A stretch of DNA of 64,000 nucleotides from an uncultured Planctomycetales bacterium (GTDB lineage Bacteria; Planctomycetota; Phycisphaerae; UBA1845; PWPN01), in contig CAZZFA010000008.1 of the NCBI GenBank assembly GCA_964653435.1, positions 15,253 to 79,252 on the forward strand, read 5' to 3'. This document shows positions 23,253 to 31,224 of the stretch, one piece after another. Each line of letters opens with the position of its first letter. Positions within the stretch are counted from its first letter, which is position 1. Made by a program: the position numbers and the translations under genes. Under the pieces are notes generated by a model. It worked only from the letters and a program-made list of their open reading frames with translations, did no database searches and was not told the origin of the DNA.

Positions 23253-24938
23253 ATGAGTGGAAGACTCTTGTTTGTGGCGAGCTTGGTGATTGTCATGACG
23301 ACCAGTTGTGCAAGCCTTAAACCGGACGCCAAAGTGAACGAAGCCATCGACCTCGTGGAGAAGCACACAGGTCAGCGACCGGAGTGGATAACACCGTGGG
23401 ATGAGCAACCACCGCTGTGGAATGGCAAAGCCGTCCTGACCCTTGAGCAAGCCTTGGGACTTGCTTTGCGCAATAATCGCGAGCTTCGGGCCGACGTCGA
23501 GATGATCGGCCAAGCCAACGCCGACCTCGTCCAGGCCGGGCTCCTGCAAAACCCGACGTTCGACTTCATGCTCATGTTTCCCAGCGGCGGCGGCAGGACC
23601 ATGCTTCGGAGCAACGCGCTACCCATGATGCCCTTGCAGGACTTGTGGTTGATTCCGGCCCGACAGGAGGTGGCCCGCGCCCAGTTGCAGCAGGCTGTCC
23701 TGCGGGTTGCTGATCGAGCGATCGAGACTGCGGAAGCCGTGAAGAAGGTTTACGCCCGCCTGCAGTACACACAACGTGCCATCGATCTGATCAAGGACAA
23801 CATGCAAGTCGTGAACCAGTCCACCCAGATCATCAAGGTTCGGCAGGCGTCCGGCAAGGCTACGCAGGTGGAGGTCAACCTGTCGCAGATTCGCTACCTC
23901 AAGCTCCGGTCGGAAATCGTTGCGATGGAGGCCGAGCATCGCGGTGCCCAGCGCGAGATGTTGATGCTGATGGGGGTGGCGGGCGCGACGGACGAATGGA
24001 GCGTCCACCCGGTCCACGAAGTCAAGGAGCCGTTGACCGCTCCGGCTGACGAAACAGCGATGCTTGCGGTGGCGTCCGAACGGCGGCTGGATCTGAAGGC
24101 CGCGGAATGGAATGCGACAGCGGCCGAACGACGGATCACCTTGATGGCCAGGGAGGGGTGGCCGGATCTGGCGATGGGATTGACATTCGAGCGCTCGCCG
24201 GCCCCGCCGTCGCAGAACCAGCGTTTTGCCGGAAAAGTTGGCAATGCCGCGGCCCAGGGTGTCGTGGATGGAATCACGGGGATGTCGTCACCGGGGCCGA
24301 TGGTTGCACCATTCAGCCCCAAGATGCGCGAGGTCAAATACACCCTCGGGCCGATGATCCAGATGGAGATCCCTATCTTCGACTACAACCAGGCCCAGGT
24401 CGCCAAGGCGTTGCACGAGCATCGTCAACGCATCGCGGAATACGAAGCCCGTCTCCAGGAAATCACTCGCATGGTGCGCGAAACACGGGTGATGCTCCAA
24501 CAAACGTACGACCAGGTCACGTTCTACCGCCGGGAAATCCTCCCCGCAGTCGAACGCAACCTGACCGTCGCCCGACAGGCATACGTGGCCGGGCAGGAGG
24601 ACCTGACCGTCTACCTGCAGGTCCAGGAGGATGTCCTGATGACGAAGCTGAAAACGCTGGAGTACTACCGCGATTGGCTGGTGCGGAGGGCTGAGCTTGA
24701 AAGACAGGTTGGAGGACGGCTTGAGGTTGCGGCCCCAGACACTCAGCCGGCGGCGTCCGAGCTGCGGCCCGACGGACCGGCCGCGAAGCAGCCGGCCCAT
24801 GCATACTACGTCTGCCCGATGCATCCGGACGTACGACAGGACGCTCCGGGGAAATGTCCGAAGTGTGGCATGAATCTCGTCCTGGAGAAACCGACCGAGC
24901 CGTCGTCAACACAGCCGGCGGCATCGAAGACATCCTGA
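23253..24938 (+). CDS. cusC: RND outer-membrane factor (CusC-like lipoprotein) with C-terminal heavy-metal-binding domain
   Basis: Start at ATG 23253 gives [19 protein letters not shown]. TolC/OEP body. The last ~60 aa contain [26 protein letters not shown] (HMBD-type CPMH...CPxCGM motif). Confidence 0.85.
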   Translation: [561 protein letters not shown]

Positions 24939-24968
24939 GCTCGTTGCGAACGATGACGGAGGTTTATC

Positions 24969-30000: not shown

Positions 30001-31224
30001 GTCGAAAACGGGGTCAAACAGACCGTGGTCAAAGAGCGCGGCATCCAGAGCGTTTCCAACGAGGTCGCGGGAGTGCTCCGGGGCATCCGTGGCGCCGTGG
30101 ACGTGTTTCCAGATCAGGTTGTGGGCCGCAGCTACCTTCAGATAGACATCGATCGCGAGAAGGCGGCGCGATATGGCGTCAACGTCGCGGACATTCAGGA
30201 GGCGATTGAGGTGGCCATGGGCGGCAAGACGATTACGACCACGGTCGAGGGTCGCCGCCGGTTCCCTGTGCGCGTCCGCTACGCACGCGACTTCTGGCAG
30301 ACGCAGGAGTCGCTGAAACGCATCCTTGTGACCGGCCGCCGTGGCGGTGGTGCCGCACAGGCTGAGACTGTCGGAGCGATGGGCGCTGCGGCCGCAGGTA
30401 TGTCCACAGACTCCGGCGGCGAGGCGATGCCTGGCGGTGAGTCATTCCAGATCCCCATCACCGAAGTGGCGGACATCAAGGTCGTCGAGGGGCCGAGCGT
30501 GATCAAGAGCGAGAACGGCATGCTGCGTTCCTATGTGCAGCTCAATGTCCGCGACCGCGACATCGTCGGGTTTGTCGAGGAGGCGCAGCAGGCGGTGGCC
30601 GAGAAGGTCAAGCTGCCAGCGGGCTTCTACATCGAATGGAGCGGGCAGTTTGAACATCAGGTCAGGGCAAAGAAGACGCTTCAGATTATCTTCCCCATGG
30701 TGATCCTGCTGATCTTCGTCATCCTCTACATGACCTTCAACGATGTCCGCGATGCCATTCTCATCATCCTGGCGGTCCCGGGCGCCCTCATCGGAGGCGT
30801 CATCTTCCAGAGCCTGTTCGGGTTTAACTTCAGCGTCGCCGTATGGGTCGGCTATATTGCCTGCTTCGGCATGGCAACCCAGACGGGCATCGTCATGCTG
30901 GTCTATCTCCATGACGCGATCAACGCCCGCGGTGGGCTCGCCAAGATCAGCTCCCTCAAAGAGCTTACCGACGCGATCATCACAGGAGCCGTGCATCGGT
31001 TGCGTCCCAAGCTTATGACCGAAGGTGTGGCCATCATCGGCTTGATGCCGATGTTGTGGGCCAGCGGTGTAGGCGCCGAGGTCATGAAGCCCATGGCCGC
31101 CCCAGTCCTGGGCGGCTTGCTGGTCGCCGATGAGGTCATCGATCTGCTTCTACCGGTCATCTTCAACTGGTATCAGTCGCGTCGGTGGCGTAGGCTGCAC
31201 GCAACGTCGGCAGCATCGGCTTGA
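27049..31224 (+). CDS. cusA: HME-RND pump (CusA-like, Cu/Ag type), 1391 aa with large insertions
   Basis: GIAISIGILVDAAVVMVENA is CusA-type rather than DFG-DGA. The CusA Met-triad contexts are conserved (LDMPVT, IDMVET, RVDMLATG). ~260-aa helical insert at about residues 676-935 (nt ~29074-29853), plus extra hydrophobic segments near residues 525-585. Confidence 0.9.
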   Translation: MIPHLIEFCVRNRYIVLLLTAVVAVWGVYCVLKTPIDAIPDLSENQVIVFTDWMGRSPKEIDDQITYPLSVNLQGLAGIKAIRSSSEFNFSMINIIFDEKADFYFARTRVLERLNIASTFLPPSVVPYLAPDATALGQIFWYTVEGEGHSLDELRAIQDWYVRYQLYVPGVAEVASAGGFVREYQIDADPEKLRAYDIPLGQVFNAVARSNIAVGGKVFFENKAEYLIRGVGWLRGVGDLENVVVAERNGVPIYVRNLATVQLGPEYRRSMLEKNNREAVGGVVMMRYGENPLTVTRAIKDRIEQLQAGLPQGVRIVPFYDRTRLIEGAIHTLTGTLKEELIVASIAILLILTHIRSAIVVCSTLPLAVLVAFILMYYLGIPSNIMSLSGIAISIGILVDAAVVMVENATHELTRHFGHEKVRGDTTEIVVQACRLVGKPIFFAVVIMLISFLPVFALGGQEGKMFHPLAFTKSFAMIGVALLAVTFVPAIIPILIKGRLKHEEDNWIVRSFINIYKPVLTWLMNVPAAGLWFMGLLFIIGAGFVGSRTLFVGVLAIALFFGSVFFSRLWSKGLAFMLLLAMALWADRFPKLGREFMPPLDEGSILDMPVTVPRVSIAEASDDIRVRDEVMAHFPEVDQVVGKVGRADTPTDPSGIDMVETIVTLRPKEWWPKRKVRFEDAMVEAGELIRLLQDRGYLKKDMKPDVVESLANNAAMEASVQFDRSMRDLAFRRQVEYEPVIAKTLLAATITDLLDVFRDKGAIKNQPTATQIDRIADDLVKSHGLLLVEVPRREELVALVSAVADRLAELGDVVKTPDLLVLPESWWLDVKDAVTTAVGGEKTTLASLLFDRFEQRLHDEWVKRVRMLNWELEDHAGNAMVWSLLDALRSNADATGILQKKPTDEELQAVRDERGKAFTKRFFLWHKLKPDIVKEMDSELQMPGWGNIWTQPIINRVDMLATGVRTMIGVKVFGPRLEDLTEERVENGVKQTVVKERGIQSVSNEVAGVLRGIRGAVDVFPDQVVGRSYLQIDIDREKAARYGVNVADIQEAIEVAMGGKTITTTVEGRRRFPVRVRYARDFWQTQESLKRILVTGRRGGGAAQAETVGAMGAAAAGMSTDSGGEAMPGGESFQIPITEVADIKVVEGPSVIKSENGMLRSYVQLNVRDRDIVGFVEEAQQAVAEKVKLPAGFYIEWSGQFEHQVRAKKTLQIIFPMVILLIFVILYMTFNDVRDAILIILAVPGALIGGVIFQSLFGFNFSVAVWVGYIACFGMATQTGIVMLVYLHDAINARGGLAKISSLKELTDAIITGAVHRLRPKLMTEGVAIIGLMPMLWASGVGAEVMKPMAAPVLGGLLVADEVIDLLLPVIFNWYQSRRWRRLHATSAASA

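Follow-up and report, generated by a model that had tools for sequence, protein, structure and literature searches.

A planctomycete Cus-type efflux operon with a long CusA pump and a metal-binding domain on its outer-membrane factor

Three genes with added modules

We analyzed a 64,000-nucleotide (nt) stretch of a contig from an uncultured Planctomycetales bacterium (hereafter the window; GC content about 60%), in which positions 23253-31224 hold three co-directional open reading frames (ORFs) with intergenic gaps of 30 and 70 nt: an outer-membrane factor (OMF), a periplasmic adaptor, and a pump of the HME-RND type. In homology searches, the best homologues of the OMF and the pump came from Phycisphaerae and other Planctomycetota. 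A reading made from the nucleotide letters and their translations alone (the sequence-only reading) had described these genes as a Cus-type tripartite system in which all three components carry extra modules, and this is borne out by profile matches and by the alignments to E. coli CusA, CusB, and CusC that it had proposed, for which the E. coli K-12 cus locus served as the reference and which fixed the insertion boundaries. We found that the pump, by alignment, falls into a large clade of long CusA proteins from Planctomycetota that share a 259-amino acid (aa) helical insert, a predicted hairpin of two extra membrane helices, a beta-hairpin, and a disordered Met-enriched loop. This pump architecture is common but undescribed, the fusion of an HMBD to the OMF is rare, and the operon is not a new kind of system.

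The pump gene (27049..31224, plus strand; 1391 aa) matches the CusA/CzcA model TIGR00914 with 984.2 bits (cut-off 701.45) in four stretches, broken by the inserts, and its top PDB sequence match is E. coli CusA (E=8e-238, four blocks), to which it is 42% identical. It departs from the canonical RND architecture of about 1050 aa, 12 membrane helices, and a single membrane helix 7 (TM7) in having 1391 aa and three predicted helices in the TM7 region. The contexts of the CusA methionine triad are retained, as the sequence-only reading held: in the alignment M608, M658, and M959 correspond to CusA M573, M623, and M672, E660 corresponds to E625, and D400 and K1321 correspond to D405 and K984, for which roles at the metal site and in the proton relay have been described in CusA (PMC8092243). 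The triad, D400, and K1321 are 100% conserved in 121 sequences, and E660 was mapped against CusA only. Since the Met triad is retained, the long pump appears to be of the Cu/Ag type.

The largest addition to the pump is a helical periplasmic insert of 259 aa in the PC1 subdomain (aa 672-930; 29062..29838, plus strand). Its length agrees with the earlier estimate of about 260 aa, but by alignment it replaces six CusA residues (R637-M642) rather than about 15. Modeled in isolation by AlphaFold with a 36-sequence alignment, it has a mean per-residue confidence (pLDDT) of 93.2 and a predicted TM-score (pTM) of 0.81, and it is all-helical, with seven helices, two of which span 56 and 51 residues. 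The insert stays above pLDDT 90 in a larger construct (aa 500-1140; pTM 0.56), which was used for local secondary structure and pLDDT only and whose Foldseek search was uninformative, with CusA at the top at a TM-score of 0.1. A Foldseek search of the insert against the PDB gave no fold match (best E=0.13, TM-score 0.28), and neither did Pfam contain a match to it. Within the domain there is a weak internal repeat (aa 734-784 and 869-919; 29248-29400 and 29653-29805; hhalign probability 50%, E=1.6e-4), whose unit consists of a helix, a G-x-[LIV]-K-x-x-P-T turn, and another helix; four copies of the turn motif are present in the domain as a whole.

Across the 121 sequences, the insert contains no conserved Cys. 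Its sole well-conserved potential ligands are M716 and H783 (88% each), other Met residues being exchanged with Leu, Ile, or Val, and its invariant residues are concentrated at the junctions (WWPKRK and FLWxKxK) and in a pair of charged motifs (FDRxMRELAxRRQ and LNWELED) carried by the long helices. The insert stands immediately before the helix that carries the equivalent of CusA N651 (S938 here), and CusA R705 corresponds to R1011; in CusA, the distance between N651 and R705 tracks the opening of the cleft (PMC8092243). It would therefore emerge at the PC1 lip of the periplasmic cleft. The lack of conserved Cys, together with this place beside the cleft, argues for a structural or docking role rather than a metal site. 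The sequence-only reading had suggested several added metal sites along the whole efflux path, and for the largest of the additions this does not hold.

Three smaller inserts complete the lengthening of the pump. The TM7 region is expanded to 65 aa (aa 528-592; 28630..28824, plus strand), compared with 21 in the CusA alignment, and AlphaFold predicts three helices in it (aa 527-545, 548-564, and 569-586; pLDDT 80-91), in agreement with the three hydrophobic segments noted earlier where CusA has TM7 alone. The length of this region falls into classes among the homologues, with 28 aa in four sequences including CusA, 72-80 aa in 101, and 129-132 aa in five. These classes differ by steps of about 45-55 residues and contain one, three, and five hydrophobic segments by reading of the sequences; since an odd number of segments preserves the topology, we read them as one or two inserted helical hairpins. 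In PC2, the CusA alignment reveals a 19-aa insert (aa 980-998; 29986..30042, plus strand) that is predicted to form a beta-hairpin, with AlphaFold strands at aa 980-986 and 989-996 (pLDDT about 70-79). The Gly/Ala/Met-rich insert of the sequence-only reading is likewise present in this alignment, as a low-complexity loop rich in Gly, Ala, Ser, and Met (aa 1094-1133; 30328..30447, plus strand). The loop is disordered in the model (pLDDT about 30), ranges from 7 to 83 aa in homologues with variable sequence, and often ends in [E/A]M[P/A]GGE; its Met content is 6.4%, compared with 3.1% for the whole protein, and at least two Met are found in 104 of the 121 sequences.

The adaptor gene (24969..26978, plus strand; 669 aa) encodes a CusB-type periplasmic adaptor that matches HlyD_D23 at aa 138-359 (E=9.7e-73, 244 bits) and the NCBIfam model RND_mfp TIGR01730 (122.4 bits, cut-off 94.9); its match to the CusB subfamily model PRK09783 (E=6.5e-36, 123.6 bits) lies below the cut-off of 390. 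By these matches and the CusB alignment, it has the barrel-sandwich, beta-barrel, and membrane-proximal domains of the CusB type. The N-terminal HMBD that had been noted from sequence is confirmed by PF19335 (match at aa 74-99, E=3.7e-13, 49.6 bits, cut-off 23.6; domain at aa 74-98, 25188..25262, plus strand). This domain aligns to CusB D47-V69: M49 and M66 stay Met, Cys takes the place of M64 as well as of D47 and S61, and His that of Y50. In CusB, Cu(I) is bound by M49, M64, and M66, which also make contact with CusF and set off a conformational change (PMC6715271). The HMBD is thus, by homology, a cysteine-rich version of the CusB N-terminal site, which is not in itself proof of the same function.

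About 200 extra residues follow the beta-barrel domain of the adaptor. They include a DUF3347-like module between the beta-barrel and membrane-proximal domains (26190..26543, plus strand), which ends in HCPMAKADW...NPYYGQDMLGCGE. Both of its matches are weak and below the cut-offs: PF11827 gives E=0.015 and 16.6 bits (cut-off 25.5), which does not place the module in DUF3347, and the NCBIfam model LIC13259/LIC11441 gives E=2e-8 and 34.7 bits (cut-off 100). The DUF3347-like insert of the sequence-only reading therefore stands as a resemblance only. The module's CPM...NPYxG...C motif is kept in the adaptors of four related loci (L002, L003, L084, and L085, the last from isolate RAS1). Before the membrane-proximal domain, we found a degenerate second HMBD, YYCPVYPDRLYEKAEMCPLEKFPM (aa 545-568; 26601..26672, plus strand), that had gone unnoticed earlier. 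It is a conserved variant, recurring as CPxYPD...CP[LI][DE]K in the adaptors of L003, L084, and L085, and in the adaptor of L002 a second HMBD likewise separates the beta-barrel from the C-terminal domain. L003, L084, and RAS1 retain this adaptor architecture along with the long pump.

The OMF gene (23253-24938, plus strand; 561 aa) begins with a body of two OEP repeats (aa 1-488; 23253..24716, plus strand) that belongs to the OMF family by its PF02321 match (E=2.6e-36; 125.6 bits, cut-off 22, two stretches) and aligns with E. coli CusC end to end, aa 488 corresponding to the CusC end. At the N-terminus, a hydrophobic stretch is followed by ...VMTTSC, with a possible lipoprotein Cys at aa 19 that does not sit in a textbook lipobox. 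An extra stretch of about 35 aa containing Gly, Pro, and Met is present around aa 330-385 (about 24240-24410) relative to CusC. Behind the body come a Pro/Ala-rich linker of 29 aa with no CusC counterpart (24717..24803, plus strand), the HMBD (aa 518-543; 24804..24881, plus strand), and an 18-aa tail. That the OMF ends in an HMBD, as first seen by eye, is confirmed by PF19335 (E=2.6e-14; 53.3 bits, gathering cut-off 23.6), and in a tblastn search E. coli CusB aa 44-78 matches exactly this domain (E=3.7e-4). The C-termini of TolC-family proteins lie in the periplasmic equatorial region, so the OMF tail would hang in the periplasm.

Distribution of the long pump and of the fusion

The best 120 homologues of the pump are 56-81% identical to it and 1152-1530 aa long, nearly all of them above 1330 aa. 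The window's own pump is missing from this full-length search, its cluster representative being a 375-aa fragment. Nearly all 120 carry the four inserts, with median lengths of 259 aa for the big insert, 65 for the TM7 region, 19 for the small insert, and 37 for the loop, and they include proteins annotated as 'Cation efflux system protein CusA' in RAS1 and RAS2 (isolates, Phycisphaerae bacterium). Among 1.84 billion cluster representatives (clusters at 50% identity), an insert profile matched 303 clusters at E≤0.001, of which 163 reached E≤1e-10. With the exception of one repeat protein, every match that was inspected or classified is an RND-pump sequence. The ten longest of these matches comprise eight CusA-like pumps with triad motifs or fragments of such pumps, one unrelated repeat protein, and one chimera. 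The chimera (P0169, 1128 aa) opens with a long-CusA start including part of the insert and continues with nonribosomal peptide synthetase-like adenylation, carrier, and thioesterase domains; it is probably a chimeric assembly. A search with the insert alone had yielded nine fragmentary matches and had made the insert look very rare, an effect of a word-index limit that the profile and full-length searches overturned.

Insert-bearing pumps were also seen in metagenome-assembled genomes (MAGs) of Pirellulales, Gemmataceae, Planctomycetaceae, and Thermoguttaceae, among the matches listed in a scan with one genome per species; the listed matches are mostly short-loop CusA of Bacteroidota, and about 15 loci were informative. 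Together, these observations show that the long CusA is common in Planctomycetota, where it is the normal form of the Cu/Ag-type RND pump. In the literature searched, we found no paper that describes long CusA pumps or gives experimental data on any member. Long pumps normally adjoin an HMBD-less OMF or have no adjacent OMF gene, the latter being the case in the RAS1, Pirellulales, and Gemmataceae loci.

The HMBD on the OMF has a different distribution. Among the 120 closest OMF relatives (48-100% identity), it is found in four, namely the window's own protein, P0011, P0015, and P0024, which are 57-100% identical. These four are scattered in a neighbor-joining tree, each beside an HMBD-less OMF, which points to repeated gain or loss; the fusion is rare and patchy. 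Two related loci illustrate its company. In L003, the genes after the OMF-HMBD fusion encode an adaptor and a pump start that are 90% and 96% identical, respectively, to their counterparts in the window. In L002, the fusion is followed by a two-HMBD adaptor and a pump of 1251 aa (11875-15630) that is without the 259-aa insert and has instead a TM7-region expansion of about 150 aa plus a further 19-aa insert near TM10; in this pump, the same scaffold has been lengthened differently. The sequence-only reading had raised the question of whether the fusion and the long pump go together, and they do not do so regularly: the fusion is present in 4 of 120 OMFs, and the normal partner of a long pump is an HMBD-less OMF or none nearby. 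The extras of the OMF, the adaptor, and the pump are not tightly co-occurring and thus are independent modules rather than a co-evolving set.

In addition, L084 contains a split version of the fusion. Here, a 115-aa lipoprotein (LLTAGC lipobox, Pro/Ala linker) carries an HMBD almost identical to that of the window's OMF, and its gene lies directly before a second OEP gene and a few genes upstream of an HMBD-less OMF, an adaptor, and a 1400-aa pump. This arrangement suggests that the HMBD is functionally tied to the outer-membrane channel. The lipoprotein HMBD, the 475-aa OEP protein, and a multicopper oxidase stand in a row upstream of the pump operon (L084 4651-7712) and possibly form an OMF-linked copper oxidase module.

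A metagenome scan for OMF-HMBD fusions found none in the 80 loci kept, among the matches listed, a result that is not usable as a frequency; likewise, 0 of 104 HMBD-containing ORFs among these matches fit an OMF profile. In the listed metagenome loci, the HMBD occurs on adaptors, on a P-type ATPase, and in tandem (two to three copies) in small secreted proteins. Other contexts (L102 from 8926 onward; L092, L101, L126, L139, and L151) include the C-terminus of small periplasmic proteins, and one HMBD stands at the N-terminus of a 920-aa protein whose end resembles an outer-membrane beta-barrel. The papers found that cite PF19335 use that domain for an ATX1-like chaperone only and are silent on the HMBD module.

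Genes around the operon

Two genes directly upstream of the OMF encode proteins with YHS/TRASH domains. The first (21008..21799, plus strand; 263 aa) is a YHS domain fused to a DUF2231 membrane domain (Pfam YHS E=2e-7, DUF2231 E=1.2e-13); the same architecture is found upstream of the OMF in L003 and L084, and this protein is a conserved upstream partner of the operon. The second (21917..22894, plus strand; 325 aa) is a secreted protein with an N-terminus resembling a signal peptide, three YHS/TRASH domains (Pfam YHS E=2.6e-24, three stretches), and a Met/His-rich C-terminal tail, which makes it a candidate periplasmic metallochaperone substituting for CusF. YHS/TRASH genes are found at the same upstream place in L002, L003, L084, and L004. 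The sequence-only reading had reported that no cusF is present and had not mentioned these proteins; a tblastn search with E. coli CusF against the whole window indeed detected none (best E=0.53), although a divergent CusF elsewhere in the genome is possible.

Further upstream lies a 134-aa ORF (20376-20780) with a lipoprotein-like N-terminus (…VWAAGC), four CxxC pairs (CRKC, CPDC, CARC, and CDLC), and no Pfam match, whose product may likewise bind metal in the periplasm. The gene for a membrane-anchored protein of the HD_5 (HD-GYP-like) type (19317-20291) is flanked by cysK (18317-19291) on one side and the YHS genes on the other. On the minus strand (16578-18071), a few kb upstream of the long-pump operon, a HAMP-SpoIIE (PP2C) membrane phosphatase is encoded, and a HAMP-SpoIIE phosphatase is likewise found a few kb upstream of the long pump at the isolate RAS1 locus (L085, 4138-5610); it is a candidate regulator. 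In L002, L003, and L084, an extracytoplasmic-function (ECF) sigma factor with a zf-HC2 anti-sigma pair takes the place of the phosphatase upstream.

The operon sits within a metal-resistance island. Upstream of it, at 184-13328, is a second metal-resistance cluster that consists of an OEP-family OMF (184-2286, a 700-aa ORF whose true start probably lies farther downstream), an adaptor (2439-3701), an HMA-domain P1B ATPase (4586-6766), an HME-type RND pump of canonical length (6763-9939, 1058 aa), and a twin-arginine (TAT)-signal multicopper oxidase (11613-13328, minus strand). The ATPase gene separates that of the adaptor from that of the pump. The 1058-aa pump has Q, V, and E at the positions of the CusA Met triad and L and V at those of E939 and K984. 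As it is without the Met triad, this pump is not of the Cu(I) type, and the genome thus holds short and long HME-type pumps side by side.

Proposed mechanism, alternatives and relation to known systems

We consider it probable that the locus is a functional planctomycete CusCBA-type operon for tripartite efflux of Cu(I)/Ag(I), with YHS/TRASH proteins as donors, HMBDs as acceptors, the insert as a scaffold, and the OMF tail as an optional part. In the mechanism we propose, the upstream secreted YHS/TRASH proteins would capture periplasmic Cu(I)/Ag(I), a task for which these conserved proteins have probably replaced the missing CusF. The metal would then be handed to the cysteine-rich HMBDs, which may serve as acceptors or activation switches in the manner of the CusB N-terminus; by analogy with the CusC3B6A3 stoichiometry, six of these would sit on the adaptors, and in the rare variant three more would be tethered by flexible linkers of 29 aa to the OMF trimer at its periplasmic end. 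From there, the metal would enter the pump cleft, reach the Met triad, and be expelled by proton-driven cycling. The 259-aa insert would most likely be a rigid docking scaffold for the enlarged adaptors and the tethered metal-binding modules, and the OMF tail an optional accessory that is easily gained or lost and may be interchangeable with a separate lipoprotein-anchored HMBD.

Several observations weigh against this operon model. The proton-relay residue E939 of CusA is replaced by Q1278 (30880-30882), with Gln in 98 and Glu in 23 of the 121 relatives; the periplasmic pair M271/M755 is lost (M271 replaced by Tyr, M755 by Thr), as are the membrane Met residues M403 (Leu) and M501 (Ile). Of the CusA pairs M410-M501, M403-M486, M391-M1009, and M271-M755, M391-M1009 alone is intact here, the pump keeping M386, M405, M477, and M1346. 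The substituted E939 and the lost Met residues suggest that the relay differs from that of E. coli, and the presumed substrate specificity is read from conserved residues. Moreover, most other Planctomycetota loci are without an adjacent OMF gene, and the assembly may therefore differ from CusCBA. Within the insert, M716 and H783 could be part of a metal site, and the direction in which the domain projects and its putative contacts with the adaptor or the OMF are so far a proposal.

Other explanations of the added modules have to be weighed against these data. One is that the insert acts as an envelope-spanning strut, its long helices rising beside the adaptor hairpins to touch the outer-membrane channel or the cell wall and partly replacing contacts of the adaptor or the OMF, as an adaptation of the pump to the planctomycetal periplasm. 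The two very long, confidently predicted helices (51-56 residues, about 75-85 Å if straight), the phylum-wide presence of the insert in Planctomycetota, and the many long-pump loci that have an adaptor but no adjacent OMF gene are consistent with such a strut; however, the present models do not fix the orientation of the insert, the pTM of 0.81 of the isolated domain suggests a compact bundle over a free hairpin, and Foldseek against the PDB gave no likeness to adaptor hairpins or TolC coiled coils, so that we consider a strut unlikely. In a bolder proposal, the long CusA would represent an RND architecture of its own, having 14 (or 16) membrane helices and, in the periplasm, a built-in helical arm that alters the assembly of pump, adaptor, and channel, and in a few lineages the channel would carry a copper sensor like the CusB N-terminus. 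This we regard as distinctly unlikely; if true, substrate would be sensed or loaded at the outer-membrane component, which is undescribed for any tripartite pump.

The sequence-only reading had favored an extended metal relay, in which the OMF HMBD, the adaptor modules, the helical insert, and the Gly/Ala/Met loop are all metal stations that pass copper stepwise from the periplasm to the exit. The conserved Cys, Met, and His residues of the HMBDs and of the CPM...C module would suit such a relay, as would the twofold Met enrichment of the loop and the conservation of M716 and H783 in the insert. Yet the insert is devoid of conserved Cys and its remaining Met residues exchange freely with Leu, Ile, and Val, the loop is disordered and variable in both length and sequence, and the OMF HMBD is missing in 116 of the 120 relatives whose partner pump is of the same kind and hence is not an obligatory relay step. 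A relay through all these stations is therefore quite improbable. It is also very doubtful that the insert is a lid or gate at the lip of the PC1 cleft, where, as an autoinhibitory or substrate-selecting cover, it would control whether metal or a chaperone can reach the Met triad. Its insertion right before the N651-equivalent helix, whose distance to R705 reports cleft opening in CusA, and the conserved charged motifs on its two long helices would fit a lid, but these residues may equally form salt bridges within the domain, and a rigid bundle of 259 aa would make a large lid.

Finally, the inserts or the OMF tail could have arisen by mis-assembly, frameshift, or read-through in a MAG, an explanation that the sequence-only reading had itself allowed for. 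Some database relatives are visibly frameshifted fragments (e.g. P0008 and P0009). Nevertheless, none of the inserts disrupts the reading frame, and all are conserved in 120 independent sequences of 56-81% identity, those of two isolate genomes among them; the large insert folds at pLDDT 93, and four sequences with 57-100% identity share the OMF-HMBD fusion. This conservation in independent sequences refutes the artefact explanation, to which we attach next to no probability. The same reading had also allowed that the architecture might prove common and already characterized; common it is, for the long CusA, but no paper characterizing it was found.

Overall, we find these pumps of interest because the CusCFBA model has been built almost entirely on E. 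coli. The Planctomycetota counterpart has a pump that is one-third longer and possesses extra predicted membrane helices and, next to the substrate cleft, a 259-aa domain so far without annotation; it has no CusF, and its acceptor modules are cysteine-based, not methionine-based. Such systems offer naturally occurring variants with which to examine metal delivery to tripartite pumps and metal sensing by them, and the presence of the long pump in cultured strains such as RAS1 makes experiments feasible. The insert, with no Pfam or PDB match and at least 300 sequence clusters, merits a domain-family entry of its own. In addition, the OMF-HMBD fusion and the lipoprotein HMBD of a relative hint that HMBDs may act at the outer-membrane channel.

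The closest characterized system is E. coli CusCFBA (CusA 3K07 and 3KSO; CusBA 3NE5), which likewise combines an OMF, an adaptor, and an HME-RND pump. The long pump has equivalents of the CusA Met triad, E625, D405, and K984, but it is 344 aa longer than CusA, with four inserts and two extra predicted membrane helices, has Gln in place of E939, and has lost the M271/M755 pair. The adaptor shares the barrel-sandwich and beta-barrel domains of CusB, and its N-terminal metal module aligns with the CusB site; it is 262 aa longer and carries cysteine-based HMBDs rather than a three-Met site. The OMF adds a C-terminal HMBD to the CusC fold, and the window contains YHS/TRASH proteins upstream and no CusF. 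Nearer still are the long CusA proteins of RAS1 and RAS2 (P0279 and P0336; 1395-1396 aa), which are 74-80% identical to the window's pump, share the same four inserts, and are annotated by homology only. RAS1 resembles the window in having the same adaptor architecture upstream of the pump and a HAMP-SpoIIE gene nearby, and differs from it in having no adjacent OMF gene. The HMBD modules (PF19335) of CusB-like adaptors, P1B ATPases, and small periplasmic proteins have the same CxMHP...CPxCGM motif as those described here, where, unlike in these usual settings, one is placed on the C-terminus of a TolC-family protein. Lastly, the divalent-cation HME-RND pumps of the ZneA/CzcA type (4K0E) share the RND superfamily and fold and form the second-best PDB group (E=2e-157); the window's 1058-aa pump of canonical HME type is without the Met triad, whereas the long pump keeps it and is hence assigned to the Cu/Ag type.

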